The position numbers and the translations under genes are program-made. The notes below the pieces were generated by a model. That model did no database searches, was not told where the DNA came from, and was given only the letters and a program-made list of their open reading frames with translations. Below, piece by piece: positions 493 to 23,326 of a stretch of 23,654 bases of DNA. Source of the stretch: an uncultured bacterium (GTDB lineage: Bacteria; DYJV01). Location of the stretch: the NCBI GenBank assembly GCA_964543655.1, contig CAZIZE010000101.1, positions 1-23,654 on the forward strand, in the 5' to 3' direction. Positions within the stretch are counted from its first letter, which is position 1. Each line of letters starts with the position of its first letter.

Positions 493-521
493 TTGACTAT
501 TTTTTGTTTTTAAATTATAAT
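493..521 (+). promoter_or_regulatory. Near-consensus sigma70 promoter of the gntR-hydantoinase-TRAP operon
   Basis: TTGACT (493-498), 17 bp spacer, TATAAT (516-521). Predicted +1 is about 528, the A of the ATG. Confidence 0.75.
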
Positions 522-527
522 AAAATT

Positions 528-1442
528 ATGTTTGAAATTCATAATTATTCAAACCCATTTAGCTTAGGAATATTTCTTGATTATATTTTCAGGCACAAGA
601 TTATAACAGGTGAACTGCCGTTTAATTCTAAGTTGCCTGGGATTAAACAGTTAGCAAATGAGTATTATTTTAGTGAAAGGATTCCTGTAGAAGCATATAG
701 CAGATTAAAAGATGCTGGTTATATAAAAACTATTAAAAAAGGAGGCACAAGGGTTTCCCTTACACTTGATGTTAATGCAAGAGAAATTTATGGGAAGAAT
801 TACATTTATTTTCAAAATATAATTGCAATGCTTTATGCTGCTGGTTTTACAAAAGATGACATTTTTTCATGTTTTTTTAATGCTATTGAATCTTTTGATT
901 CTGTAAATTCAAAATTTTTATATATAGAAGATAATGTTATTGACCTTTTTCAAGGAAAGGAAGAGCTTGAAAATAGATTAAATATCAAGTTAAATTGCTC
1001 TCTATTGGAATTGTTTCAAAGCAGAGAGCTCAAAGAAGAAGATAGGATAATTATAACTTCATTTAAAAATTATTACAAATTGCAATCATTAAATCCAGAA
1101 ATTGAAATTATCCCACTTAGAACCACACCAAATCTATCTGAAATTATAAATTTTAATCATATTCCCACATATTCTCATATTTATTACATTACATCAACAG
1201 ATGATGAGAAAAAACTAATTTTAGAGAAATTTGGATACCTTTATAAAAAATTTAAGAATTTTAAAATTATAAAAATCAATGAATTTAAAAAATTTAAAAG
1301 AGTAAATATGATTATTACAACTAAGAGAGTTTTAAATTTGTTGAATTTAGAAAGTAATATCAAGGTATGGGTTTTAAATAGGTTTTACGATGATGATGGC
1401 ATTAACCTCATCAAAAGCAAAATTGAGGAGAGAGCTAAATGA
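528..1442 (+). CDS. GntR-family transcriptional regulator with long C-terminal effector domain (304 aa)
   Basis: N-terminal wHTH: GELPFNSKLPGIKQLANEY...VEAYSRLKDAGYIKTIKKGGTRV. Start moved from GTG453 to ATG528 because the promoter lies inside the longer ORF. Stop overlaps the next start (ATGA at 1439-1442). Confidence 0.82.
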   Translation: MFEIHNYSNPFSLGIFLDYIFRHKIITGELPFNSKLPGIKQLANEYYFSERIPVEAYSRLKDAGYIKTIKKGGTRVSLTLDVNAREIYGKNYIYFQNIIAMLYAAGFTKDDIFSCFFNAIESFDSVNSKFLYIEDNVIDLFQGKEELENRLNIKLNCSLLELFQSRELKEEDRIIITSFKNYYKLQSLNPEIEIIPLRTTPNLSEIINFNHIPTYSHIYYITSTDDEKKLILEKFGYLYKKFKNFKIIKINEFKKFKRVNMIITTKRVLNLLNLESNIKVWVLNRFYDDDGINLIKSKIEERAK

Positions 1443-3415
1443 TTATTATTGGTGTTGATACAGGTGGTACATTTACAGATTTCGTTTTCATTAAAGAAAA
1501 TGAAGTGAAAATTTATAAAAGGTTATCCACTCCTTTAAATCCTGCTGAAGCAGTTCTTGATGGAGTTAATAAAATTTCTTCAGATAGTAGAAATATTATT
1601 CATGGTTCAACAGTTGCAACCAATGCTATCCTTGAAAGAAAGGGTGTGAAAACAGCGTTAATTATAAATAAGGGATTTGAAGATATAATTGAAATAGGCA
1701 GGCAAAACAGAGAGGAATTATACAACTTGAGCTATGAAAGGCCAAGGCAAATTGTTCCAGAAGAGTTAAGATTTGGTATTAAAGGCAGAATTCTCTACGA
1801 TGGAACTCTTATTGAGGATTGTGATGAACAAGAAATAGAGGATGTTATTCAACGTATTAAAAGTATGGATGTGGAGTCACTTGCAGTTTCATTACTTTTT
1901 TCATATGTTGACAATTCTCATGAAAAAAAGGTTGAAGAGATAGCTCAAAAGCATAATATCCCGGTATCATGTTCATATAAGGTTTTGCCAGAATTTAGAG
2001 AGTATGAAAGAACTTCTACCACTGTTTTAAATTCTTATGTATCCCCTATTATGCACAGATATATTAAATTCTTGCAGAACAACCTGAAAAGTTCAGATAT
2101 TCTCAGAATTATGCAATCCAATGGCGGTAGTATTTCAGCAGAAACAGCAATGGTGGAATCTATCAGAACCATTCTATCAGGCCCTGCTGGAGGAGCTGTT
2201 GGTGCTCTTGAAATAGGCAGGCTTGCAGGATATAATAAGTTAATTACATTTGATATGGGAGGCACTTCCACAGATGTTTCCCTTATTGATGGCAAATTAT
2301 CATATACTTACGAATCAAAAATTTCTGGTATGCCAATTAAAGTGCCAATGATAGATATTCATACAGTAGGTGCAGGTGGTGGCTCAATTGCATACCTTGA
2401 TGAAGGTGGAGCATTAAAAGTGGGACCAGAAAGTGCTGGAGCAGATCCTGGACCAATATGTTATGGAAAGGGTGAGAAGATCACTGTAACTGATGCAAAT
2501 CTCTTTCTGGGAAGATTGATTCCAGATTTTTTTCTTGGCGGGAATATGAAGTTATCATCTGAGAGAATAAACTCATACTTCAGCGAGCTTGCAGAAAAAG
2601 CTAAAATGACTCCTGTTGAACTTGCAATGGGTATTCTTGAAATTGCTAATGTAAACATGGAGAGGGCTATTAGAGTTATTTCTGTTGAAAAAGGATTTAA
2701 TCCAGCAGAATTTACCCTTTTTTCATTTGGTGGGGCAGGTGGTATGCATGCAGCTTTTCTTGCTGAAAATCTCTCTATTGGTACAGTTTTTATTCCTAAA
2801 AACCCAGGTATTTTATCAGCTTTTGGAATGTTAATGGCTGATATTATTAAAGATTATTCTCATACCATTATGGTGAATGAATCAGAAGCTGATTATACCA
2901 ATATAAAAGAAAAGTTTGAGCCATTAATTTCAAATGCTATAAATGATATGAAAAATGAAGGAGTCAGGAAAGATTCAATAAAGTTTGAATATTACATTGA
3001 TATGAGATATAAGGGCCAATCACATGAAATAACTATACCATTTGATAAAGATTTTGTTAATACTTTTCATACGTTTCATGAAAGAAATTTTGGTTATAAA
3101 AATATCAATAAACCAACGGAAATAGTTAATATTAGACTTAGAGCAATTGGTGCATTAAAAAAGCCTCAGATTAAAGAATATCCACTTGGTAGTGAAAAGA
3201 TAGCTAATGATGCAGTTATTATGGAAAAAGATGTTATTTTTTACAATACAAATCCTGTTAAAACAAAGGTGATTAGCAGAGAGAAATTAAAACCAGGTAA
3301 TCTATTTACTGGCCCCTCAATAGTGGTAGAATACACATCAACTATTGTGATACCACCTAAGTGGAGTGCAAAGGTTGACAAATTTGAAAATATTATTTTG
3401 GAAAAGCAGCGATAA
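1439..3415 (+). CDS. Hydantoinase/oxoprolinase family subunit A (HyuA / N-terminal half of OplA type, ATP-binding)
   Basis: GVDTGGTFTD, HGSTVATNA, REYERTSTT, SGPAGG, DMGGTSTDV, GAGGGSIA, GPESAGADPGP motifs. SD GAGGAG upstream. Confidence 0.95.
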   Translation: MIIIGVDTGGTFTDFVFIKENEVKIYKRLSTPLNPAEAVLDGVNKISSDSRNIIHGSTVATNAILERKGVKTALIINKGFEDIIEIGRQNREELYNLSYERPRQIVPEELRFGIKGRILYDGTLIEDCDEQEIEDVIQRIKSMDVESLAVSLLFSYVDNSHEKKVEEIAQKHNIPVSCSYKVLPEFREYERTSTTVLNSYVSPIMHRYIKFLQNNLKSSDILRIMQSNGGSISAETAMVESIRTILSGPAGGAVGALEIGRLAGYNKLITFDMGGTSTDVSLIDGKLSYTYESKISGMPIKVPMIDIHTVGAGGGSIAYLDEGGALKVGPESAGADPGPICYGKGEKITVTDANLFLGRLIPDFFLGGNMKLSSERINSYFSELAEKAKMTPVELAMGILEIANVNMERAIRVISVEKGFNPAEFTLFSFGGAGGMHAAFLAENLSIGTVFIPKNPGILSAFGMLMADIIKDYSHTIMVNESEADYTNIKEKFEPLISNAINDMKNEGVRKDSIKFEYYIDMRYKGQSHEITIPFDKDFVNTFHTFHERNFGYKNINKPTEIVNIRLRAIGALKKPQIKEYPLGSEKIANDAVIMEKDVIFYNTNPVKTKVISREKLKPGNLFTGPSIVVEYTSTIVIPPKWSAKVDKFENIILEKQR

Positions 3416-3478
3416 ATTTTAACATGAATTATTCAAAAGATTTTGCTTTGAGTTATGAATTAAAAAGAGGAGAGTTTT

Positions 3479-5050
3479 ATGGAAGTTAATCCTATTCTAT
3501 TAGAAGTTTTTAAAAATAGATTTATTTCCATTTCAGAAGAAATGGGTGTTACCCTTGTTAGAACTGCATATTCACCTAATATTAAAGAGAGAAGAGATTC
3601 TTCATGTGCAATTTTTAATGCCAATGGAGAAATGATAGAGCAGGCTGCTCATATACCTGTTCATTTAGGCTCAATGCCTCTTTCAGTTAAATCTGCAATT
3701 GAAGATATGGAGTTAAATGAAGGAGATATGGTTATTCTTAATGATCCTTACAAAGGGGGGACTCATTTACCTGATGTTACCATAGTAGCTCCTGTTTACT
3801 TTAATTCAGAAAAGCCTTTATTTTATGTTGCCAATAGAGCTCACCATGCTGATATAGGAGGGATGACACCTGGTTCAATGCCTCTTTCAACATCACTTTT
3901 TCAGGAAGGTGTGATTATCCCACCATTAAAGCTTGTGGAGAATGGAGAAATTGATAAAAAATTTATGAAATTTTTATTAAATAATGTGAGAACCCCTTAT
4001 GAAAGGGAAGGGGATTTTGCAGCACAAATTATGGCTAATATTATTGGAATTAAAAGAATCAAAGAATTAATAGAAAAATACTCTGAAAAAACAGTGCTTT
4101 TTTATGCTGATGAGTTAATAAACTATACTGAAAGAATTACAAGGCATATTATTGGAAATATGAAAGATGGTGTTTTTGAATTTGAAGATTTCCTTGATAA
4201 TGATGGAATTAGTGATGAACCAGTAAAAATCAAGGTTATAGTAGAAATAAAAGGTGATGAAATGCATATTGATTTCTCAGAATCTTCTCCTCAGGTAAAA
4301 GGCTCTGTAAATGCTGTATTTGCGATTACTGCATCTGCTGTTTTATATGTTGTGAGGACATTAATAGAGAGGGAAATTTCAACTAATGCAGGAATATTGA
4401 GAGCTATTAAAATCAAGACTAAAAAGGGTACAATAGTTGATGCTGAGTTTCCCTCTGCTGTTGCTGGTGGTAATGTGGAAACTTCACAGAGAATAGTTGA
4501 TGTACTCCTTGGAGCACTGTATAAAGCACTTCCTGATAAAATTCCTGCTGCAAGCCAGGGCACAATGAACAATATTGCAATTGGCGGGATTGATGAGCGT
4601 AGAGGCACTCCTTTTGCATATTATGAGACTCTTGCTGGTGGCATGGGTGCTTCATCTAAAAATAATGGAGCTAATGCTGTACATTCGCACATGACAAATA
4701 CGTTAAATACTCCTGTTGAAGCACTTGAGTATAGTTATCCATTTCTTGTAACAAATTATTCAATTAGAAAAGGCTCAGGTGGTAAAGGTAAATTTTCAGG
4801 GGGCAATGGATTGATTAGAGAAATCAAACTTTTGTCAGATTCGGAAATTACAGTTCTTTCTGAAAGGAGAAGATTTGCACCTTATGGATTAAATGGAGGA
4901 GAAGCAGGAAAAACAGGATTGAATATTATAATTGATGAAAATGGTGAAAAAAAAGTTATGCCATCAAAATTCAATATTTCAGTAAAGAAAGGCTCTATTT
5001 TGAGGATTGAAACACCAGGTGGTGGTGGATGGGGCAAATATTTACAATAA
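3479..5050 (+). CDS. Hydantoinase B/oxoprolinase family subunit B (metal-binding catalytic subunit)
   Basis: RTAYSPNIKERRD, HIPVHLGSM, NDPYKGGTHLPD, RAHHADIGG, HMTNTLNTPVE, ETPGGGGWG motifs. SD GAGGAG. Confidence 0.95.
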   Translation: MEVNPILLEVFKNRFISISEEMGVTLVRTAYSPNIKERRDSSCAIFNANGEMIEQAAHIPVHLGSMPLSVKSAIEDMELNEGDMVILNDPYKGGTHLPDVTIVAPVYFNSEKPLFYVANRAHHADIGGMTPGSMPLSTSLFQEGVIIPPLKLVENGEIDKKFMKFLLNNVRTPYEREGDFAAQIMANIIGIKRIKELIEKYSEKTVLFYADELINYTERITRHIIGNMKDGVFEFEDFLDNDGISDEPVKIKVIVEIKGDEMHIDFSESSPQVKGSVNAVFAITASAVLYVVRTLIEREISTNAGILRAIKIKTKKGTIVDAEFPSAVAGGNVETSQRIVDVLLGALYKALPDKIPAASQGTMNNIAIGGIDERRGTPFAYYETLAGGMGASSKNNGANAVHSHMTNTLNTPVEALEYSYPFLVTNYSIRKGSGGKGKFSGGNGLIREIKLLSDSEITVLSERRRFAPYGLNGGEAGKTGLNIIIDENGEKKVMPSKFNISVKKGSILRIETPGGGGWGKYLQ

Positions 5051-5067
5051 TTAACCTTTAAGGTTAA
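5051..5067. repeat. Perfect 17-bp palindrome TTAACCTT-T-AAGGTTAA
   Basis: Read directly, between the subunit B stop and the dctP SD. Confidence 0.6.
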
Positions 5068-5087
5068 AACAAAAAAAGGAGGTAAAA

Positions 5088-6071
5088 ATGAAAATGAGAA
5101 AAGTTTTAATTGGTTTTTTAATGGCTCTTGTTACTTGTCTCCCGATGTCATTATCAGCAAAGCTTGTTAAACTTGATTGTAATGCAATTTATGGTCCTAC
5201 AAGTTTTCACACTCAGGGTGCTATGAAATTTGCTGAACTTGTTAAAAAATATTCCAATGGCTCTGTTATTATTACTGTTCATCCTGGTGGCAGTCTTGGA
5301 TTTAAAGGCCAGGAGCTTCTTAAAGCAGTAAAAGATGGTTCTGTTCCTCTATCTGATATTTTAATGGGGGTTGTTGCTGGAAGTGAGCATATATTTGGTG
5401 TAAGTTCTCTGCCAAAGCTTGTTAATAGTTACAAAGCAGCAAAAAAGTTATATGAGCAGATGAAACCATTTTACAAAAAAGCTGCAATGAAATGGAATCA
5501 AAAATTTTTATATGCAGCACCTTGGCCACCAAGTGGTCTTGTTACAAAGAAACCTATAAAAACTGTAGCTGACCTAAAAGGATTAAAAACAAGAACCTAT
5601 GATAAAAATGGAGCTGAGTTTTTAAGAGCATTAGGTGCATCACCTGTGGCTCTTCCTTGGGGTGAAGTTTACTCATCTTTAAGAACAGGTATGATAGACT
5701 CTGTGCTAACCTCAACAGAATCAACTAAAAATGGTAAATTCTGGGAAGTTTTAAAATATTTTACAAATATTTACTATGCATTTCCTCTTAATATGATGAC
5801 AATTAACCTTGATTACTGGAAATCTTTGTCAAAAGAGCAACAGAAAGCTATTTTAAAAGCTGCAAAAGAAGTTGAAGCATTACAATGGGCAAATTCAGAA
5901 AATAGAATGATAAATGCAACAAAAGTAATAGAGCAGCATGGCATGATTGTTAACAATTCTACCCCTGAGCTTGAAAAAGCAATGAAAAAAGCTGCTGCTA
6001 AGTTGTGGAAAAAGTTTCTAAGAAGATGCAACAGTAAAGAGAAAGCTATTTTAAAAGAATATATGAAATAA
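5088..6071 (+). CDS. dctP: TRAP transporter substrate-binding protein (DctP family, DctP6/7-like)
   Basis: Signal peptide MKMRKVLIGFLMALVTCLPMSLSA. HPGGSLG, PWPPSGL, LKGLKTRTY (carboxylate-binding Arg), EVYSSLRTGMID. SD AGGAGGT at 5077-5083. Confidence 0.95.
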   Translation: MKMRKVLIGFLMALVTCLPMSLSAKLVKLDCNAIYGPTSFHTQGAMKFAELVKKYSNGSVIITVHPGGSLGFKGQELLKAVKDGSVPLSDILMGVVAGSEHIFGVSSLPKLVNSYKAAKKLYEQMKPFYKKAAMKWNQKFLYAAPWPPSGLVTKKPIKTVADLKGLKTRTYDKNGAEFLRALGASPVALPWGEVYSSLRTGMIDSVLTSTESTKNGKFWEVLKYFTNIYYAFPLNMMTINLDYWKSLSKEQQKAILKAAKEVEALQWANSENRMINATKVIEQHGMIVNNSTPELEKAMKKAAAKLWKKFLRRCNSKEKAILKEYMK

Positions 6072-6074
6072 TAA

Positions 6075-6100
6075 AAGCAGGGTGTAAACCCTGCTTCTTT
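6075..6100 (+). terminator. Intra-operon hairpin / leaky intrinsic terminator after dctP
   Basis: AAGCAGGGT-GTAA-ACCCTGCTT (9-bp stem, GNRA loop) followed by CTTT. Confidence 0.75.
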
Positions 6101-6134
6101 CAGTAAATAGATAGATTTTTAATGTGGAATGAAA

Positions 6135-6623
6135 ATGAAGAGTATGGATAAATTAATAAAATTCTTTGATAAAATTGCTGATATAGGCGGGTATATATCA
6201 TCTGTTTTTATGATATTCATTGTTACTCTGATTTTGCTTGAAATTTTTTTAAGAACTTTTTTTAATACATCCACTTTAATATCAGATGAATATAGTGCTT
6301 ACTTTTTTGTTGTAGTGGTAATGTTTGGGCTTGCATATACTTTTAAAGAAGATGGTCATATCAGGATTACCATTATTTTAGGCAGACTTAATCCAAAACT
6401 TAATAAAATTCTTGATATTATTTGTCTCATAATAGCACTTTTGCTTACAATTTTTATGTTTTATTACTCTTTAAAAATGGTAATAGATACACATGCTCTT
6501 GATATGAGAGCAGATTCTATTGCAGAAACTCCACTTTTTATACCTCAGATTGCTCTGCCTGTTGGGTATTTTATATTTATTTTATCTATTGTAGGAAAAC
6601 TTTTCAGGAGGATTAGAAAATAA
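6135..6623 (+). CDS. dctQ: TRAP transporter small permease
   Basis: Four TM segments, DEYSAY and EDGHIRITI motifs. Start ambiguous (6129/6135/6144); GGA at 6126-6128 favours 6135. Confidence 0.92.
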   Translation: MKSMDKLIKFFDKIADIGGYISSVFMIFIVTLILLEIFLRTFFNTSTLISDEYSAYFFVVVVMFGLAYTFKEDGHIRITIILGRLNPKLNKILDIICLIIALLLTIFMFYYSLKMVIDTHALDMRADSIAETPLFIPQIALPVGYFIFILSIVGKLFRRIRK

Positions 6624-7954
6624 TATCAGATCCATTAACTTTAGCTATTGTTATGTTTGGGATTATGTTTGCCTTCCTTCTTTCTGGTGTGTGGATAGGG
6701 TTTTCTCTCTTTCTTGCTGGTATAAGTGGAATGTTGCTTTACAATATAACTTTGCCACCTAATATGTCTATCTGGTTTAAAATAGGCACTTTAATTGCCA
6801 ATTCTGTGTGGAATAGCATAGATTCATGGTCATTAACTGCTCTTCCTCTATTTGTTTTAATGGGAGAGATTCTTTTCAGAACTGCAATGTCCACAAGATT
6901 GTTAAATGGTCTTGTGCCCTGGCTTTCCAATGTTCCAGGAAGATTATTACATATTAATGTAGTAGCTTGTTCCCTGTTTGCAGCTGTATCAGGGTCAAGT
7001 GCAGCTACCACAGCAACTGTTGGGAAAATAACACTTACAGAATTATCAAAAAGAGGTTATGATAGAAAACTTGCTATTGGCTCACTTGCAGGTGCAGGCA
7101 CTCTTGGCTTTTTAATACCTCCAAGTCTTATAATGATTATTTATGGTATTCTCTCAGATAGCTCAATAGGAAAACTTTTTATTGGGGGTATTATTCCAGG
7201 TATAATTTTAGCATCAATGTACTCTTCATATATTATTATTGTTTCTCTAATAAAACCCAATATTGTCCCTAAAGAAAAAGAGCATTACACTTTCAAAGAA
7301 AAAATTATTGCTTCAAAAGAATTGATACCTGTTCTTGGTCTGATATTTGTTGTTCTTGGTGGAATCTATCTTGGTTTTACTACCCCTACAGAAGCTGCTG
7401 CAATAGGAGTGCTTGGAGCTTATATACTTGCTATTTATTTTAAAAATTTAACCTGGGAAAATTTTAAACTTTCACTTCTAAATTCAGTGAAAACAACAGT
7501 TATGATATGTTTTATAATTATGGGAGCTGCATTTTTATCCCAAGTAGTTGGTTTTGTTGGTATAGCAAGAGCATTAAGTGAATATATTGCTGGGCTTCAT
7601 CTATCTCCCTATGTGTTGATTTTTGTCCTTGGGTTAATGTATCTTTTTTTAGGAATGATTCTTGATGGGATTTCAATAGTTGTTATGACATTGCCAATTG
7701 TTTTACCAATAGTGTTGCATGCACATTTTTCACCTTTATGGTTTGGAATTTTCCTTGTAATTATGGTGGAGCTTTCACAAATTACTCCACCAGTAGGTTT
7801 TAGTTTATTTGTGATTCAAGGTATTTCAGATGAAAAGATAGATACTATTTTAAAGGCAACTTTTCCATTTTTCATTATTATGATTTTAATGGTTGTGTTG
7901 CTTACAATTTTTCCAGAAATAGCACTTTACCTACCAAACAAAATGATTCATTGA
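6620..7954 (+). CDS. dctM: TRAP transporter large permease (probable ATA start at 6620; first ATG at 6653)
   Basis: ALPLFVLMGE, AAVSGSSAAT, GTLGFLIPPS, TPTEAAA, ITPPVG motifs. SD AGGAGG (6606-6611) lies 8 nt before in-frame ATA6620. Confidence 0.93.
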   Translation: MISDPLTLAIVMFGIMFAFLLSGVWIGFSLFLAGISGMLLYNITLPPNMSIWFKIGTLIANSVWNSIDSWSLTALPLFVLMGEILFRTAMSTRLLNGLVPWLSNVPGRLLHINVVACSLFAAVSGSSAATTATVGKITLTELSKRGYDRKLAIGSLAGAGTLGFLIPPSLIMIIYGILSDSSIGKLFIGGIIPGIILASMYSSYIIIVSLIKPNIVPKEKEHYTFKEKIIASKELIPVLGLIFVVLGGIYLGFTTPTEAAAIGVLGAYILAIYFKNLTWENFKLSLLNSVKTTVMICFIIMGAAFLSQVVGFVGIARALSEYIAGLHLSPYVLIFVLGLMYLFLGMILDGISIVVMTLPIVLPIVLHAHFSPLWFGIFLVIMVELSQITPPVGFSLFVIQGISDEKIDTILKATFPFFIIMILMVVLLTIFPEIALYLPNKMIH

Positions 7955-8023: not shown

Positions 8024-9442
8024 ATGAAAATTAGATTTACAGTTTTAGCAACATTTCTTGCGTTTTTTCTCTTTATTAATCCTGTGGCAAAGAGTTTTGC
8101 CAGCACACTTGAGCAGGATATGAACAAAGCTATTTATTCTGCTGTTGGAGAGGCAGTTGCTCAGGTAATTGAGGAAAAATCTGGTGTTCCTGCTTCATCT
8201 ACAGGGAGTATTGTTGGATATTTTTCAGCAGGTGATTTTAAGGATGGTTTTCTTGAAATTTTAAAACTTGCCTCAGATACTGCAATATCTGCAATACCAG
8301 TGGTGGGACCAATTAAATTTGTGGCTTCACTTGAAACAAGCCTGATAAAAGTATGGAAGAGCTGGCTTGATTGGACCCAGATTTCTGTTCTGTGGAATAA
8401 ATTTAAAACCTTATCTGATACAGAGAAGGAGATGTGGCTCAGTGGAAAAGAAGAGATTGCTGTCCTTGACTATTCTTCACAGGCAGCTTATCTTGAAAGA
8501 AATGGTTATAATGTAAAAGAGCTTTTCAGAAAATATTATGAATCAGAAAAAAGCTCTAAAAAAATTCTTGAAGCTGTGCAGAAAATCACTGAAATTCTTA
8601 AAGATGCCAAATATTTAATTGAGCCAACTTTGTATTATCCTTATAAAAGTGGTGAGAAGGTTAAGTTAAATACAGCTATTAAAATATGGAGAAGTTATAA
8701 CAACTATTTTAAAATAGATATTTTTCTCCCTGATGGCAAATCAAGCTCTATTATAAAGAAATTTTCAGATTCAGAAAACACTTTTTCTTTTAAATTAACT
8801 GAATTTCAAGGTATTGATTGGAACAGTTATTTTGAAAAATATCCTGAAGGAGTAAATGTAAATTTTACAATTTATGCTGCTATATGGGATAATACTGGAC
8901 TTATTGAGCAGTTTATGGGTAGTGATTTTGTTACACCAAAAGAAAAAATTTTAAGAAATATTCCAGGTCAAAAAAAACAGTTAGTTACTTTAAAATTTAA
9001 CCTTGTTGTAGTTTCAGATAATCAGAAAAAATCTTTTCAAATTAGTGCAGGTGGTGATTTATATTTTAAATATAAATTAGTTGTTGTTGGTGTTAATGAG
9101 CAATCAGGAAGTGATTCTATTTATTTCACTGATACTTTTAAAATAACATGCAGTCAGGATGGCTCAAGTTTCGCAGTTGATAGTGATGGTATTAAGTGGA
9201 ATACAACTTGCTATTTTGATGATGATTCAAATGTGAGTAAAATAGCTCTCTCAGCCACTTATGGCCCATTAACTGCTTACATTGATTTTAACATTAATGG
9301 TTCATCCTGTAGCAGTTCTCTGTATACAACTGGGGTTTATAAATCTCCACCAGAAAATATAGCTGGTGAAGATGGCACAACATATACATATTATGGAGAA
9401 TTTTACGATTTTAAATCAACACCTTCCTGTTCAATAAATTAA
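8024..9442 (+). CDS. Hypothetical exported protein (472 aa), no recognisable family
   Basis: Long ORF. SD AGGAGG (8014-8019) before ATG8024. Sec signal peptide MKIRFTVLATFLAFFLFINPVAKSFA. Four Cys in the C-terminal region. Confidence 0.85.
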   Translation: MKIRFTVLATFLAFFLFINPVAKSFASTLEQDMNKAIYSAVGEAVAQVIEEKSGVPASSTGSIVGYFSAGDFKDGFLEILKLASDTAISAIPVVGPIKFVASLETSLIKVWKSWLDWTQISVLWNKFKTLSDTEKEMWLSGKEEIAVLDYSSQAAYLERNGYNVKELFRKYYESEKSSKKILEAVQKITEILKDAKYLIEPTLYYPYKSGEKVKLNTAIKIWRSYNNYFKIDIFLPDGKSSSIIKKFSDSENTFSFKLTEFQGIDWNSYFEKYPEGVNVNFTIYAAIWDNTGLIEQFMGSDFVTPKEKILRNIPGQKKQLVTLKFNLVVVSDNQKKSFQISAGGDLYFKYKLVVVGVNEQSGSDSIYFTDTFKITCSQDGSSFAVDSDGIKWNTTCYFDDDSNVSKIALSATYGPLTAYIDFNINGSSCSSSLYTTGVYKSPPENIAGEDGTTYTYYGEFYDFKSTPSCSIN

Positions 9443-9450
9443 TTATAATC

Positions 9451-9478
9451 AGGTGCTTCTTTTGAAGCACCTTTTTTT
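9451..9478 (+). terminator. Intrinsic terminator
   Basis: AGGTGCTTC-TTTT-GAAGCACCT followed by a T-tract. Confidence 0.88.
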
Positions 9479-9489
9479 AAGAGGTATCT

Positions 9490-10542
9490 ATGTTAATAGT
9501 TATTGCTGGTGCTGGAGTTGTTGGTAGCTGGATAGCCTATGAGCTTTCATCTGCAAATCATGAAATCTTTCTAATTGATAAGGAGCCTGCCATCTGGTAC
9601 CATACAAGCACGAGAAACAGTGGTGTTATTCATGCAGGTATCTACTATCCATACCATTCATTAAAAAGGATTTTTTGCATACAAGGAGCAGCTTTATCAT
9701 ATGAGTTTTTTAAAAAGTATAATGTTGAACATAGAATTTCTGGTAAAATTATAGTTGCAACAAGGGATGAAGATTGTGAAGAATTAAAAAAATTAAAGAA
9801 AAATGGTGATACTAATGGAGTTAAGGGTCTTAAATTAATTAACTCTTCTGAGATTAAAAAATTAGAACCTTTTTCAAAAGCAAAATTTGCACTATACTCT
9901 CCAAATACAGGAGTTGTTAATTGCTCAGATTATTTTAGAAAAATGGAAGCTCTTCTTCAGGAAAGAAAGGTCAATATTATAACAAATTGTTGCATTGAAA
10001 ATATTAAAAATAACAAGATAATTACAAATAGGGGAGAACTTGAATTTGATTTTTTTATTAATGCAGCAGGCCTTTATTCAGATAAAATAGCTAATATGTG
10101 TGGTATTGAAGGATTTGAAATAGTTCCTTACAAAGGTGAATATTACTCTCTAAATGATGAAAAAGTTAATAGCATGATTTATCCTGTTCCTGGAGGAGAA
10201 GGGCATCTTGGAATTCACCTTACAAAAGCTGCATACAATGAAATATGGATTGGGCCAACCTCTTCTAAAGAGGAAAATAAGGAATCTTATGATGTTACAG
10301 AAAAAGAGGATATTTTTATAAAAGCATGTGAAGAATTGTTAATAGATTTTAACTATAAAAAAATTTCTCCAGGTTTTGCTGGATTGAGACCAAAATGTTT
10401 CCACAATCATCAGCTTTTACATGATTTTCTCATTTTTAGAAAAGCTAACAAGATTCACCTTCTTGGAATAGATTCACCTGGACTTACTGCTGCACCTGCT
10501 ATAGGAAAATTTGTAAAAAATTTAATTATTACAGAAGAATAG
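9490..10542 (+). CDS. FAD-dependent oxidoreductase, L-2-hydroxyglutarate oxidase (LhgO)-like / DAO family
   Basis: GAGVVG dinucleotide motif, HTSTRNSGVIHAGIYY, INAAGLYSD, PYKGEYY, LGIHLT, AGLRPK, SPGLTAAPAIG. Confidence 0.85.
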   Translation: MLIVIAGAGVVGSWIAYELSSANHEIFLIDKEPAIWYHTSTRNSGVIHAGIYYPYHSLKRIFCIQGAALSYEFFKKYNVEHRISGKIIVATRDEDCEELKKLKKNGDTNGVKGLKLINSSEIKKLEPFSKAKFALYSPNTGVVNCSDYFRKMEALLQERKVNIITNCCIENIKNNKIITNRGELEFDFFINAAGLYSDKIANMCGIEGFEIVPYKGEYYSLNDEKVNSMIYPVPGGEGHLGIHLTKAAYNEIWIGPTSSKEENKESYDVTEKEDIFIKACEELLIDFNYKKISPGFAGLRPKCFHNHQLLHDFLIFRKANKIHLLGIDSPGLTAAPAIGKFVKNLIITEE

Positions 10543-10569
10543 ATAAAAAAATTAAATATTGGATTAGGT

Positions 10570-12024
10570 TTGAATTCTACCTATCTAAAACAATTAGAAA
10601 AATTAAAAAAAACAGAAATTCCCCTTATTTTAAAAAATTTTAAAAAAAATTTTAAAGTTCTTTTAGTCTATCCCAATTCTTACTATATTGGAATGTCTAA
10701 TCTTGGTTTTCAAACTATTTACAAAGTTTTAAATTCCCATTCAGAAATTTCTTGTGAAAGAGCCTTTTTACCTGAGTTTAAAGTAAAGCCTGTTTCTTTT
10801 GAAACCAACACATTTCCTGAATTTTTTGACATTATAATATTTTCAATTAGTTTTGAAATTGATTTTTTCAATGTTTTAACCTTCCTAAAACTTTCAGGTT
10901 TTCCATTGTATAAAGATGAGAGAAAAAACCTCCCTGTAATTGCAGCAGGTGGCATTGCTGTTACTTTGAATTATAAACCGCTAAGCAAATTTTTAGATTA
11001 TTTTCTAATTGGAGAAGGAGAAGAGCTAATTGTTAAATTTGTTGAGCAAATTATTACAGGAGGCAATCCATTAAATATTGATGGAGTAATTGGTGAAGAA
11101 AAAGAGGAAAGTAAAAGAATTTGCTCAGATAAAATTGCTCATTCTATTTTTTCTACAAAATTTACGGAGTTTTCAGACACTTTTTTAATTGAAATTGCAA
11201 GGGGTTGTAAATATAGCTGCAATTTCTGTGCAGCATCTTATAATTATTCACCATATAGAATTCATAGGTTTAATGAGCTTAAAGATGTTATGAATAAATA
11301 TTTAAAATTCTTTAACAAAGCTGGCATTGTTGGTTCCACAGTTACTTCACATCCTGATTTTATTAAAATTTGCTCATATTTAAATAATAGAAATATCCCA
11401 TTCTCTGTTACTTCATTGAGGCTTGATTCAGTTAGTTTTGAAATTTTAGATTCATTAATTGCAGGAAAAAACAGGACTTTTACAGTTGCAGTAGAAGCTG
11501 CAACAGATAGTTTAAGAAGCAAAATTAATAAAAAGCTAACAACAGAGCAGATTTTTGAAGCAATTTCTATGTTTATAGAAAAGAAAATTATAAATTTGAA
11601 ATTTTACTTTATAATAGGGCTTCCTTTTGAATCATTTGATGATGTAAAAGAAATTGTTGCTTTTATGGAAAAGGTAAGAAACTGCTACTTAAATAAAAAA
11701 TATTTTTTAAAACATCTTGGTAGATTCATTATTAGCATTAATCCATTTATTCCTAAGGCAAACACTCCTTTTTATGAATATCCAATGGAATCAGAGTTTA
11801 TATTACTTAAAAAGCTCAAGTTTTTGAAAAATAATTTAAAAAAAATCCCTAATATTCAGGTAAAATTTGAAAATATATACTCTGCATATACACAGGGACT
11901 ATTTTCCAAAGGAGATGAAAATATAGATAGATTAATATATCTCTCTGTAGATAAAAAATTAAAGTTTAAACCTTTTTTTTCAAAAAATATAGAAGTATTT
12001 AAATTTTATAAAGTAATTCAGTAA
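10570..12024 (+). CDS. Radical SAM protein with N-terminal B12-binding-like domain
   Basis: YPNSYYIGMSNLG N-terminal motif, GEGEE, EIARGCKYSCNFC (CxxxCxxC), YFIIGLP.E, FIPKANTPF. TTG start. Confidence 0.88.
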   Translation: MNSTYLKQLEKLKKTEIPLILKNFKKNFKVLLVYPNSYYIGMSNLGFQTIYKVLNSHSEISCERAFLPEFKVKPVSFETNTFPEFFDIIIFSISFEIDFFNVLTFLKLSGFPLYKDERKNLPVIAAGGIAVTLNYKPLSKFLDYFLIGEGEELIVKFVEQIITGGNPLNIDGVIGEEKEESKRICSDKIAHSIFSTKFTEFSDTFLIEIARGCKYSCNFCAASYNYSPYRIHRFNELKDVMNKYLKFFNKAGIVGSTVTSHPDFIKICSYLNNRNIPFSVTSLRLDSVSFEILDSLIAGKNRTFTVAVEAATDSLRSKINKKLTTEQIFEAISMFIEKKIINLKFYFIIGLPFESFDDVKEIVAFMEKVRNCYLNKKYFLKHLGRFIISINPFIPKANTPFYEYPMESEFILLKKLKFLKNNLKKIPNIQVKFENIYSAYTQGLFSKGDENIDRLIYLSVDKKLKFKPFFSKNIEVFKFYKVIQ

Positions 12025-14463: not shown

Positions 14464-14536
14464 TGGGCCCACCAGGATTTGAACCTGGGACCTACCGGTT
14501 ATGAGCCGGTGGCTCTGCCAACTGAGCTATAGGCCC
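14464..14536 (-). tRNA. tRNA-Ile2 (anticodon CAU, lysidine-modified); CCA not encoded
   Basis: GGGCCTATAGCTCAGTTGGCAGAGCCACCGGCT-CAT-AACCGGTAGGTCCCAGGTTCAAATCCTGGTGGGCCCA folds as a cloverleaf. G1-C72 is paired, so not an initiator. Acceptor stem and CGGCTCATAACCG arm match the Ile2 type rather than elongator Met. Confidence 0.9.
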
Positions 14537-17308: not shown

Positions 17309-18679
17309 TTAAACTCCATAAGAATTTGTTAATATTTTTATTTTACTTTTTTCTAAATTTTTAAATATTGTTAAGTTAAGGTCAAGGTTAATTTCAAGGT
17401 TGTCAATTTTAATAAATCTGTTTTTAAAACTTTTTTCAACAATTAAAAGCTTCCTGTCAATATTATAATTACTGTTATCAAATATTATACCTACACTATT
17501 TAGGGAAAAAAATCCAGCTAAAGAATTATCTTCTAAAATTTTATCTATACTTTTTTTTAAAAATTTGTAACTTTTTAATACATAATCAATATGGTATCTA
17601 TTTAAAATTTGTGAAAATTTTTGATTTTTAATAAGTATTAAACCTTTATTTTTAAATGTTGTATTTTTAATTATTTCATAAAAGTAACAATCTCTAATAA
17701 AACCTGAAATTGGTTCTATTTTAATAATAAAATCAAGATGCTCCTTTGCTATCTGCTCATAAACAATTGAGTGAAATATATCGTAACAAAAAGTGTAAAA
17801 TTTAGCAAAATCGATTTTTTCCTTAAAATTGAAAAAAATAAGTGCAGAGAAAACATTTCTACCTGATAAAAATGGGAAATATAAATAATTTTTTATACTG
17901 TTCTTTCTTAAATTTTCATTTTTATAAAAGAAAATAGAATTATTTTTTATAGATTCAACATAATTAAAATGTCTAATATTTTTTCGTAACAAAGTGCCAA
18001 CAATATTATCTTCAACTATAAGGTTTCTACCATTTAAAGATTTGAGGTTGCTGTTGTTAGTAGCTATAATTCTGTAGGTTTTATCAAAGTTATTCTTTAC
18101 AAGGCAAGCAAATTCAAAATTTAATAACTCTGATAATCTCTCCATTAAAGAGTTTATATCTATATTTTCTGAAATTAATTTATCAATTTCAAACCTTAAT
18201 TTTTTGGCAAAATCGTAATAGTTAAGAGTAAGTTTTATCTCTTTTGCAGCTTCTTCAATATTTAAAAGGTGTGAAACAATTTTAGCACAGTGTATAAGCA
18301 ACTTCTGATGCTTTTCAGCTAAGGTATAACTTTTTTTTGTATCAACATAAAGAATACCTTTAAAATTATCAACTGGTACAGCAAAGAGAAGTTTTATATT
18401 TTCTTTTTTTTTATATATGTCTATAAAAATCTTGTAAATGCTCTCTGTATTATCTTTTAATGGAAGAGGTTTTTTTAAATCTTTTATCCAGAATTTTAAA
18501 TTCTTGTCTATTTTAAATGTATAATTTGGCTTTACATTGTTACTTAATGAATAGTAATAGGCTAATTTTACTTCACTTTTATCCTCATTGTATATAAAAA
18601 GGGCTGTTGTGTAAGTTTCAAAGATATTTGAAATAAGAGCTATAAAATCTTGAAACTCCTTTTTTACTCTAATTGCCAC
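17309..18679 (-). CDS. GAF-domain protein, probably GAF-GAF-degenerate GGDEF
   Basis: N-terminal GAF-like strands (YTTALF, LFAVPV..KGILYVDTKKSY). C-terminal IEPISGFIRDCYF resembles DxLTGxxNRxxF, and LAGFFSLNSVGIIF replaces RxGGDEF. Confidence 0.6.
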   Translation of the reverse strand: MAIRVKKEFQDFIALISNIFETYTTALFIYNEDKSEVKLAYYYSLSNNVKPNYTFKIDKNLKFWIKDLKKPLPLKDNTESIYKIFIDIYKKKENIKLLFAVPVDNFKGILYVDTKKSYTLAEKHQKLLIHCAKIVSHLLNIEEAAKEIKLTLNYYDFAKKLRFEIDKLISENIDINSLMERLSELLNFEFACLVKNNFDKTYRIIATNNSNLKSLNGRNLIVEDNIVGTLLRKNIRHFNYVESIKNNSIFFYKNENLRKNSIKNYLYFPFLSGRNVFSALIFFNFKEKIDFAKFYTFCYDIFHSIVYEQIAKEHLDFIIKIEPISGFIRDCYFYEIIKNTTFKNKGLILIKNQKFSQILNRYHIDYVLKSYKFLKKSIDKILEDNSLAGFFSLNSVGIIFDNSNYNIDRKLLIVEKSFKNRFIKIDNLEINLDLNLTIFKNLEKSKIKILTNSYGV

Positions 18680-20003: not shown

Positions 20004-20807
20004 TTAATTATCTATCAATTTATCAATATACTCATTGAAACTCTTTTCATCTCTAATTGCTTTTGCATATCTATCTATTTCAGCTGCATCACTTGAATAA
20101 TATCCATAACATGATGTTGGATATGCACCTTTTGGCACTTCTACTACTTTGTCCACATAGAAGTATGGAATAGTTGTAAGCTCTGGATTTTCTCTAATTT
20201 CTTCATGTGGGATTATCTTCTCCACAGTAACAATAGCTTTGTTAGCTGCTTTAACCATAAGCTCATCTTCAAATCTTGTGCCCCTAATTCTAACATTTCC
20301 ATATTCATCTGCTTCCTGAGCATGAATTATTGCAACATCAGGATTAATTCCAGGAACAGCAACTAATTTTTCACCTGTAAGAGGACATTTTATTTCTTTA
20401 AAATCATCTCTAACTTTAAATAGATCTGAACCAAAGATACCTTTAATAGGTATAAAGGGAATTCCCATTGCACCAGCTCTGAAACCAGAAATAACAGAGC
20501 CACAGGTATGTTCCAAAAACTCTATTTCACCAGATTCCACTTTTTTTCTAAAATTGAGAGCAAGGCCAAATTCTTCAAGGCCAATATAAGCAGCAGATAC
20601 TTTAGTGGCAATTCCAGCTCCAATTAGTATATCAAAGTCAATACCTTTTTCCCTTCCAATTATGTAGAGATTTTTTTTCTTTTGTCTGATAATTTCAACA
20701 ACTGCTTTAAATGGAACTTTATTTCTCCCGACTCCTCCAAGTGCTACACAATCTCCATTTTTAATAATAGAAATAGCTTCTGATAAGGTTGTAAGTTTTT
20801 TCTGCAT
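20004..20807 (-). CDS. Family I CoA-transferase subunit A (glutaconate CoA-transferase GctA-like)
   Basis: IKNGDCVALGG, RAGAMGIPFIP..GIFGSD, CPLTGE, PDVAIIHAQEADEYGN, VVEVPKGAYPTSC. SD GGAGG before ATG20807. Confidence 0.88.
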   Translation of the reverse strand: MQKKLTTLSEAISIIKNGDCVALGGVGRNKVPFKAVVEIIRQKKKNLYIIGREKGIDFDILIGAGIATKVSAAYIGLEEFGLALNFRKKVESGEIEFLEHTCGSVISGFRAGAMGIPFIPIKGIFGSDLFKVRDDFKEIKCPLTGEKLVAVPGINPDVAIIHAQEADEYGNVRIRGTRFEDELMVKAANKAIVTVEKIIPHEEIRENPELTTIPYFYVDKVVEVPKGAYPTSCYGYYSSDAAEIDRYAKAIRDEKSFNEYIDKLIDN

Positions 20808-20842
20808 GGTAATCTCCTCCATAAAAACTAATAAATTAATTT

Positions 20843-20871
20843 AGAATAAGCTATTATATAAGATAAATCAA
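20843..20871 (-). promoter_or_regulatory. Putative promoter of the CoA-transferase to era operon
   Basis: TTGATT (20871-20866), 17 bp spacer, TATTCT (20848-20843). Confidence 0.45.
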
Positions 20872-20916
20872 GAAAAATCTTTAGATGTGAAATTAAATTT
20901 TTATGCATAAATTTTT

Positions 20917-20944
20917 AAAAGAGCAGGCATTATTATGCCTGCCC
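20917..20944 (-). terminator. Intrinsic terminator after nfnB
   Basis: GGGCAGGCAT-AATA-ATGCCTGCTC then TTTT on the minus strand. Confidence 0.75.
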
Positions 20945-20972
20945 AAAAATATTTTAGAAAAGAAAATCTTGG

Positions 20973-22382
<1,410 letters not shown>

Positions 22383-22408
22383 TTAATAATTCCTCCTTTA
22401 AGAGATAA

Positions 22409-23266
22409 TTACGAATTACATGTGCAGTTTTCACCACATGATTGTAAAAATTTATTGTATGATAGCTGCTCTTGCTGCTTATAAATAGACATTCTTTGCA
22501 TTAATTCGTCAAAATCTACCTGATGTCCATCAAATTCTGGACCATCAACACAAACAAACCTTGTTTCTCCACCAACTGTAACCCTGCATGCACCACACAT
22601 GCCAGTAGCATCAACCATTATAGGATTTAAACTAACAAGGGTTTTTACTCCAAAAGGCTCAGTTGTTTTACACAAAAACTTCATCATAATAGTGGGCCCT
22701 ATTGCAATAACAAGCTCAATATCTTTGTCCTGCTCAAGCAATTCTTTTAATGGCTCAGTAACAAATCCTTTTCTGCCATAACTTCCATCATCAGTGCAAA
22801 CAATTAGTTCATTACTTAAATTCCTCATTTTATCTTCCCAAAAGAGAAGCTCCTTAGTTCTTGCACCAATAATTGAGATTAAGTGGATACCTGCTTCTTT
22901 AATACCCATTGCAATATGGTGTATTGGTGCAACTCCAACACCACCACCTACACATACAATCTTTTTAGGATTGCCAAAATGTGTTGGTTTGCCAAGAGGT
23001 CCAACAAAATCTTTTAAATAATCCCCTTTGTTCATTCTTGCTAATTGTGCAGTTGTTTTTCCAACTTCTTGAAAGACAATTGTAACAGTGCCTTTTTCTG
23101 GATCTTTGTCTGCCACAGTTAATGGAATCCTTTCTCCCCTATCATCAATTCTAATAACAACAAATTGTCCAGATTTGGCTTTCCGAGCTACTTTAGGTGC
23201 ATCAATAATAAATTTTGTAACTCGAGGATTGGTAGAAAATACTTCTTTTTCAAGTATTTTAAACAA
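22409..23266 (-). CDS. nfnA: NfnA/SudB small subunit (FAD/NAD-binding, [2Fe-2S]); 285 aa from TTG
   Basis: GQFV, GERIPLT, GPLGKP, GGGVGVA, TDDGSYG, MVDATGMCGACRV...CVDGPEFDGH. TTG23266 preceded by AAGGAGAGG. Confidence 0.9.
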   Translation of the reverse strand: MFKILEKEVFSTNPRVTKFIIDAPKVARKAKSGQFVVIRIDDRGERIPLTVADKDPEKGTVTIVFQEVGKTTAQLARMNKGDYLKDFVGPLGKPTHFGNPKKIVCVGGGVGVAPIHHIAMGIKEAGIHLISIIGARTKELLFWEDKMRNLSNELIVCTDDGSYGRKGFVTEPLKELLEQDKDIELVIAIGPTIMMKFLCKTTEPFGVKTLVSLNPIMVDATGMCGACRVTVGGETRFVCVDGPEFDGHQVDFDELMQRMSIYKQQEQLSYNKFLQSCGENCTCNS

Positions 23267-23298
23267 TTTTCCTCTCCTTTCTTTTGAATTTGCATAGC

Positions 23299-23326
23299 AG
23301 TATACAAAATTTTTTATTTTTGTCAA
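23299..23326 (-). promoter_or_regulatory. Putative sigma70 promoter of nfnAB
   Basis: TTGACA (23326-23321), 16 bp spacer, TATACT (23304-23299). Confidence 0.65.

Follow-up and report, generated by a model that had tools for sequence, protein, structure and literature searches.

A candidate operon for 5-oxoproline uptake and its opening to glutamate by a split ATP-dependent enzyme in an uncultured bacterium

Pyroglutamate (5-oxoproline) is a spontaneous breakdown product of glutamate, and the question raised by the locus described here is whether it encodes a system that takes up this compound and returns it to glutamate. The locus lies in a stretch of 23,654 nucleotides from an uncultured bacterium (contig CAZIZE010000101.1 of assembly GCA_964543655.1), which we call the window, and comprises six genes, gntR, hyuA, hyuB, dctP, dctQ and dctM, for a GntR-family regulator, the two subunits of a hydantoinase/oxoprolinase-type enzyme and the three components of a tripartite ATP-independent periplasmic (TRAP) importer. 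HyuA and HyuB occur very commonly as split pairs, whose annotation goes no further than 'hydantoinase/oxoprolinase', and specialists have warned that many such pairs are not oxoprolinases (PMC8453981, PMC6061476). Nevertheless, we consider it quite probable, on the sequence evidence, that this operon imports L-5-oxoproline, which a split ATP-dependent enzyme would then open to glutamate. The support for this substrate is comparative: from the genes, their motifs, their neighbourhoods and an exclusion pattern among genomes we infer the substrate, the chemistry and the regulation.

The six genes are real and intact. All are encoded on the + strand, gntR at 528-1442, hyuA at 1439-3415, hyuB at 3479-5050, dctP at 5088-6071, dctQ at 6129-6623 and dctM, as an open reading frame (ORF), at 6653-7954, and their products pass the Pfam cut-offs for GntR, Hydantoinase_A, Hydantoinase_B, DctP, DctQ and DctM, respectively. 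An earlier note on this DNA described them as six tightly coupled genes, a description that holds for gntR and hyuA, which are joined by an ATGA overlap, and probably for dctQ and dctM, but not for the hyuA/hyuB, hyuB/dctP and dctP/dctQ junctions with their gaps of 63, 37 and 57 nt.

Which enzyme, then, accompanies this transporter in other genomes? A scan of GTDB for the conserved neighbourhood, a check that the earlier note had proposed, recovered 37 loci with a DctP 56-90% identical to that of the window. The same dctPQM adjoins hyuA/B in 18 of them and pxp genes in 17, with both in none and neither in two. Both hyu genes are seen in 16 of the former (hyuB being at a contig edge in two) and all three pxp genes in 15 of the latter (pxpBC at a contig edge in two); the Pxp proteins that were sampled score above NCBIfam or Pfam cut-offs, those of loci L015 and L016 falling below the NCBIfam ones. 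On the DctP tree the partner enzyme changes five to six times, three to four of these changes being forced by starred branches, and the sister loci L013 (pxp) and L023 (hyu) join at 98/92. Among the best 80 of 524 metagenome matches, which serve as a replicate, 12 loci carry hyu (one of them being the window's own DNA), 41 carry pxp, none carries both and 27 carry neither (21 of these being short). Across the 37 loci, no enzyme of downstream catabolism accompanies the core. As an observation in its own right, carboxyltransferase- and biotin carboxylase-like genes, recognised by eye, follow dctPQM-pxpBCA at L017:14146-16983, L021:11380-14203 and L022:14092-16973.

The alternation extends to whole genomes. 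Those of the 37 loci hold a close HyuB (at least 62% identical) in 21 cases, some of these genes being broken or split over contigs, and pxpA in 16, with both in one (G026) and neither in one; G042 has pxpA together with a more distant fused enzyme (44%). In the window's own genome, which is 94% complete, hyuB is the one PF02538 gene, no PF03746 (pxpA), PF02626 (pxpC) or pyroglutamyl peptidase (PF01470) gene was found, and queries with PxpA, PxpB and PxpC gave no matches; likewise, pxpA was not found in any of five relatives of this genome. A further sample of 301 genomes, which was not conditioned on DctP and was drawn from the phylum to which G040 (the Desulfoluna genome with L035) belongs, gave HyuB matches (E up to 1e-90) in 83 and pxpA in 77. 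Here pxpA occurs in none of the 49 genomes with a HyuB at least 48% identical to the window's (12.5 expected), in three of the 78 at 41% or above (20 expected) and in two of the five at 33-37%; these bands, that at 48% included, were drawn after the list had been seen, and kin genomes are not independent. DctP matches with E <1e-50 are present in 24 genomes of this sample, 21 of which have one of the enzymes, and in G214 and G316 DctP lies on the same contig as a fused OplA-type enzyme, within ~5 kb of it. The interchange of hyuAB and pxpABC beside an orthologous transporter, together with this genome-wide exclusion, speaks for the earlier suggestion that HyuAB would be used here rather than PxpABC.

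The binding protein points to the same substrate. DctP (327 residues), predicted to be a TRAP solute-binding protein of the pyroglutamate-binding subfamily, has as its top three PDB sequence matches 6wgm, 2pfz and 2pfy (E 3e-42 to 3e-38; the next at 5e-31), entries whose titles name pyroglutamate. Its AlphaFold model (predicted local distance difference test, pLDDT, 94.8) is also best aligned to these three (Z 39.5, 38.5 and 38.1; next entry 35.2), with a root-mean-square deviation of 2.0-2.4 over ~300 residues, such that by both sequence and structure it is closest to the subfamily of DctP6/DctP7 and 6WGM. It has W146-P147, R169, Y171, S209 and P233 in common with all three solved binders, retaining in R169 the putative carboxylate-binding arginine, and the likely pocket motifs are identical in hyu-linked and pxp-linked copies.

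As regards the enzyme, HyuA (658 residues; PF05378, PF01968, PF19278) would be the ATPase subunit, corresponding to the N-terminal part of OplA, and HyuB (523 residues; PF02538, 700 bits) the metal-binding hydrolytic subunit corresponding to its C-terminal part. The ATP motifs of HyuA are intact (DTGGTFTD at 7, DMGGT at 272, GADPGP at 334) and agree with the CapA motifs DxGGTxTD, DxGGT and GxxPGP given in PMC8453981, while D40, H96, D99 and H122 of HyuB align with D41, H99, D102 and H124 of CapB, the D-H-D-H metal tetrad of caprolactamase described in the same paper. The two subunits are encoded by separate ORFs, hyuB having its own ribosome-binding site, and are split in close relatives too, whereas the OplA-type 5-oxoprolinases with confirmed sequence and activity are single fused chains; judged by its motifs, the pair is a split variant that would work like OplA. 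At L034 (3893-7705, - strand) a natural HyuA-HyuB fusion, divergent from the same dctPQM, falls within the window's own, otherwise split clade, which suggests that split and fused forms interconvert, and P0001-type fusions (50-59% identity) lie within this clade as well.

For comparison, four fused eukaryotic proteins were recovered, all annotated insect, aphelid or trypanosome sequences, as distinct from the rat, bovine, human and yeast enzymes that have been assayed. The records of two give the name 5-oxoprolinase and one is hypothetical; the remaining one is called 5-oxoprolinase in UniRef and shares its cluster with a protein named hydantoinase/oxoprolinase. HyuB is 39-42% identical to these four and has in common with them the blocks NIKER, HIPVHLG, HHADIGG, GGNVxTSQR, SQGxMNN and HxHMTNT, which are missing from outgroup rows at 27-34% (distant, lactamase-like). 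These blocks and the position of DctP nearest to pyroglutamate binders both favour 5-oxoproline as the probable substrate, as the earlier note had supposed. An ESM Atlas search with a fused B domain returned generic names. Elsewhere in the window's assembly (G000, C33:18683-20317, - strand) there is a HyuA-like paralog of 545 residues (29%) for which the assembly contains no HyuB partner, whether close by or at a distance, and three relatives of the genome (L044, L045 and L046) each have an additional, distant HyuB (27-29%) in which the oxoprolinase motifs are missing, that of L045 with an in-frame TGA.

The regulator (304 residues; PF00392, 31.8 against 27 bits) consists of a YtrA-like winged helix followed by helices and a two-lobed alpha/beta domain. 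In its model (pLDDT 81.5) the N-terminal part matches 3neu (Z 12.6) and 3by6 (Z 12.3) and the C-terminal part gives weak matches to PrpR-like N-domains (Z 7.7-8.0); we found no clear structural relative of the C-terminal domain (Z up to 8.5), no FCD or other Pfam match beyond the helix-turn-helix, and, for the C-terminal part, only ESM Atlas leads of 0.89-0.90. On the model, the two-lobed domain may bind an effector. A profile search returned 19 proteins, two of them named from Hippea species, and in all 21 genome matches (one in the 301 genomes of the phylum sample, 20 of 37 in a second set) the gene lies directly upstream of hyuA. Sixteen of those 20 loci were extended: the same dctP follows hyuB in 12, two end early and two have a different TRAP system with PF07286 and DUF2848 genes. 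In this last arrangement, seen at L246:232-4701 and L248:333-4824, gntR-hyuAB is followed by the different TRAP system and by the D-glutamate-cyclase-family (PF07286) and DUF2848 genes.

Several points, in addition to the limits already attached to the identity bands, weigh against 5-oxoproline as the substrate of a split oxoprolinase. For the branch that joins the window's HyuB with the fused enzymes, tree support is 98 with bacterial fused rows only and goes down to 84-86 with the eukaryotic rows under a mixture model; these anchors, moreover, are annotated and not assayed. HyuA, at 30-33% identity to the eukaryotic enzymes, is no closer to them than to CapA and so does not discriminate, and all split family members in Table 1 of PMC8453981 act on other substrates. 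The identity of DctP to the solved binders is just 26-32%, with differences at S149 and W191, and L216 pairs a 43% DctP relative with a 33% HyuB lacking the motif blocks, so that the DctP subfamily may cover other lactams. Phylogenetically independent pairs on starred branches of the DctP tree number four, with 2.8 in the predicted direction and 0 opposed (p ~0.25), and because such pairs are so few the Fisher significance of the genome-wide exclusion is overstated; in the phylum sample neither enzyme was found in 149 of the 301 genomes, most of which are incomplete metagenome-assembled genomes, and only four candidates were scored per genome.

Could the unit then handle a close relative of L-5-oxoproline, such as the D-form, a substituted pyroglutamate or another small lactam acid? 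We regard this as improbable. The positions at which DctP departs from the solved binders and the pairing at L216 of a related DctP with a different lactamase clade would accord with such a substrate, as would a distant HyuAB in a nopaline locus (L133) and the D-glutamate-cyclase-family and DUF2848 genes of two loci, although the former gene, where L246 and L248 add it, was counted by us for 5-oxoproline. However, the interchangeable PxpABC has been shown to act on 5-oxo-L-proline (PMC13274462), hyu- and pxp-linked DctP copies do not differ in their likely pocket motifs, the genome offers no other 5-oxoprolinase candidate, and a core with which no catabolic enzyme travels is what would be expected if the product were glutamate. 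Slighter still is the chance that HyuAB is a constitutive housekeeping enzyme for the repair of internal 5-oxoproline, uptake being incidental and GntR not being a sensor of this compound. The constant position of the regulator upstream of hyuA (21 of 21) and of the same dctP after hyuB (12 of 16 extended loci) runs counter to such a role, as does the added two-lobed domain, which could bind a ligand; yet several close-clade HyuB have no adjacent TRAP genes within the fetched region, L107 is a gntR-hyuAB locus without TRAP genes, and the regulator is patchy (one of 301 genomes) and, unlike the GntRs beside pxp loci such as L009, lacks an FCD domain.

A more radical alternative, that HyuAB is a caprolactamase, an N-methylhydantoinase or a ketone carboxylase, would explain the common Pfam families and the best PDB matches, 7hk5 and 6yra, but we give it very little credence. 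The curated cut-offs are missed by far (CapA 548 against 1000, CapB 273 against 1000, ApcC 289 against 1500, ApcD 112 against 1500); the hydrophobic pocket residues of CapB are replaced, Leu38 and Tyr136 by E37 and S133, with no counterpart of the Cys410-Cys411 pair in HyuB; and 7hk5 is without the HIPVH and RAHHAD blocks. Furthermore, those substrates have no carboxylate, yet DctP keeps R169, and neither a carbamoylase nor an aminotransferase nor an additional carboxylase subunit is a recurrent neighbour of the core in those 37 loci.

If, as we prefer, the operon serves the uptake of L-5-oxoproline and its opening to glutamate, DctP would bind the compound outside the inner membrane and DctQM would carry it in, and HyuA and HyuB together would act as a two-subunit ATP-dependent 5-oxoprolinase yielding glutamate. 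If caprolactamase is a guide, ATP-dependent activation of the lactam would fall to HyuA and its hydrolysis, at the D-H-D-H metal site, to HyuB. Since it is the genome's sole 5-oxoprolinase candidate, HyuAB would also clear 5-oxoproline arising inside the cell. GntR would repress a leaderless transcript and be released by 5-oxoproline, a step that we think moderately likely and hold less firmly than the others. Finally, a hairpin that follows dctP and initiation of dctM at ATA would hold down the amount of permease compared with that of the binding protein.

The signals that bear on these last steps are as follows. A predicted sigma-70-type promoter, TTGACT-17-TATAAT (493-521, + strand; 11/12 match), ranks with one other site as the best match in the region; in this A+T-rich DNA promoter-like sites, taken together, are hardly more frequent than expected by chance (72 found against 61.1 +/- 7.9 in shuffles). 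Similar -35 and -10 boxes, read by eye, lie at the same position in L001 and L002, with an ATG ~6 nt past the -10 box, and back the site as a predicted promoter. Because only 6 nt separate the -10 box from the gntR ATG and no Shine-Dalgarno sequence is present (window 516-530), the gntR mRNA is likely leaderless. Six upstream regions compared for an operator gave no conserved palindrome, merely A/T-rich repeats, and an Rfam scan of the window for riboswitches gave a single match, a tRNA. Between dctP and dctQ lies a G+C-rich hairpin (6073-6098), listed by the scanner on the - strand only and having a 9-bp stem at 6075-6096 on the + strand, which could possibly be an attenuator or an mRNA stabiliser favouring DctP; no terminator-like site was found directly after dctM. 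The third-position GC of the operon (0.19-0.22) is like that of three downstream genes (0.17-0.20) and thus gives no compositional sign of recent transfer.

The permease genes raise a question of their own, namely where dctM begins. DctQ is the small permease (164 residues; PF04290, 101.7 bits), and DctM the large one (PF06808, 300 bits; TIGR00786, 354.8 against 268.45). The ORF finder places the start of dctM at ATG 6653 (433 residues), but the conserved DctM N-terminus xISDPL begins 11 codons before this first ATG, at ATA 6620, which would give 444 residues (6620-7954). The ATA (6620-6622) overlaps the dctQ stop and lies 8 nt past a Shine-Dalgarno AGGAGG (6606-6611), with an in-frame TAG two codons upstream; the same start codon is ATG in other orthologs, several of which are also 444 residues long. 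Most likely, judging from these features, dctM starts at ATA 6620 and not at ATG 6653. Where the start could be read, in 88 non-identical orthologs, it is ATG in 40, ATC in 25, TTG in nine, ATT in seven, ATA in four and GTG in three. The 36 cases of ATA, ATC or ATT occur irrespective of the neighbouring enzyme and all have a Shine-Dalgarno word upstream, compared with 41 of the 52 others; the start-codon state changes four times on the tree, and two TTG-start cases have an ATG three codons earlier. The host genome's six other dctM genes begin with ATG, which gives no suggestion of genome-wide non-AUG use. Near-cognate start codons give low, IF3-sensitive translation. A DctQ-DctM frameshift fusion was considered as a general explanation of the missing ATG and rejected, since the frame relation of the two genes varies, the dctQ stop lying at +1, +8, +16, +22, -4, -5 or -172 nt from the start, in two frames; a frameshift at the AGG-AGG codons would meet a stop at 6614, though for this window alone a slip by -1 at the final Lys codon is conceivable. 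In the accessible parts of the literature searched, nothing was found on a non-AUG dctM start.

Of the neighbouring DNA, the ORF at 8024-9442 (472 residues), which has a signal-peptide-like start and is followed by a terminator-like hairpin at 9451-9472, was left out of the unit because Pfam and NCBIfam gave no match for it and none of the 37 related loci has it. The region 9490-12024 encodes a flavin adenine dinucleotide-dependent oxidoreductase nearest L-2-hydroxyglutarate oxidase (236.6 of 299 bits, below the cut-off) and a B12-binding-type radical S-adenosylmethionine protein, also below the cut-off. There is a tRNA gene at 14464-14536 (- strand), and an ORF of 456 residues without an NCBIfam match at 17309-18679. 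The region 20004-23326 (- strand) contains a coenzyme A-transferase A-like gene with no B subunit beside it and a gene pair with GltA-like and PRK06222 matches, which we take to resemble NfnAB/SudAB.

What is new here is the case for a split bacterial clade as 5-oxoprolinase, the dedicated and unusual GntR, and a dctM that apparently starts at ATA. The swap with PxpABC singles out a sequence-defined clade, with usable motifs, as a likely true 5-oxoprolinase, one that may explain the repair of 5-oxoproline in some genomes without pxpABC. Given the probable non-AUG start of dctM, gene finders likely truncate or misplace the permease in many genomes, and the start may itself set the stoichiometry of the transporter. 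A bolder proposal, which we put forward tentatively and rate somewhat short of an even chance, is that many anaerobic and thermophilic bacteria (49 of 301 genomes sampled in one phylum) have in this split HyuAB clade a main 5-oxoprolinase that has gone unrecognised and swaps freely with PxpABC, that the regulator is a new type of 5-oxoproline sensor combining a YtrA-like GntR with a two-lobed ligand domain, and that the importer is throttled by a conserved non-AUG dctM start gained or lost at least four times. None of these findings overturns current understanding.

How, then, does the operon compare with known systems? The novelty is smaller than the earlier note implied, since a GntR-transporter-oxoprolinase unit has been characterised in Corynebacterium glutamicum and a TRAP system with a eukaryote-type enzyme described in Bordetella pertussis (both PMC13274462), and a two-gene enzyme has been predicted in Sulfolobus (PMC6507225). 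No published assay of a split bacterial enzyme of this clade, or of this operon, was found in a search whose coverage left out most subscription journals. A two-component oxoprolinase of Pseudomonas putida has been described with its sequence unreported (PMC6061476, PMC11033972), and PMC8453981 suggests that it may relate to PxpABC. The PxpR-pxpTABC system of C. glutamicum, in whose description the regulation of 5-oxoproline use is called previously unstudied (PMC13274462), follows the same logic of GntR regulator, importer and ATP-dependent 5-oxoprolinase, but its enzyme is PxpABC, its importer is of the APC/NRAMP type and its PxpR is divergently transcribed and has a shorter C-terminal domain (residues 79-205), all three parts being unrelated to those of the window or of another subfamily. 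B. pertussis DctP6 and DctP7 (2PFZ, 2PFY) belong to the same DctP subfamily and have a TRAP importer and an OplA-family enzyme nearby, the latter of eukaryotic type (PMC13274462); in the window the enzyme is split over two genes within a compact operon with its own GntR, DctP is 26-28% identical, and use of 5-oxoproline was not demonstrated in B. pertussis either. CapAB (6YRA), the P. putida OplAB lactamase and the N-methylhydantoinase 7HK5 have a split or fused architecture of the same kind and a likely ATP-driven mechanism. The eukaryotic enzymes OPLAH and OXP1 (EC 3.5.2.9) have the same domain order, metal tetrad, ATP motifs and B-domain blocks, whereas the window's enzyme is two chains instead of one (B 39-42%, A 30-33% identity) and its clade forms a separate branch. 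Sulfolobus acidocaldarius grows on pyroglutamate and shows ATP-stimulated activity in crude extract, and its Saci_0368/0369 was predicted from homology and such extracts to be a two-subunit 5-oxoprolinase (PMC6507225). This archaeal pair, assigned by homology without purified enzyme or knockout, is likewise a putative split OplA-type enzyme, with a B part 35-40% identical to the eukaryotic enzymes (PMC6507225).

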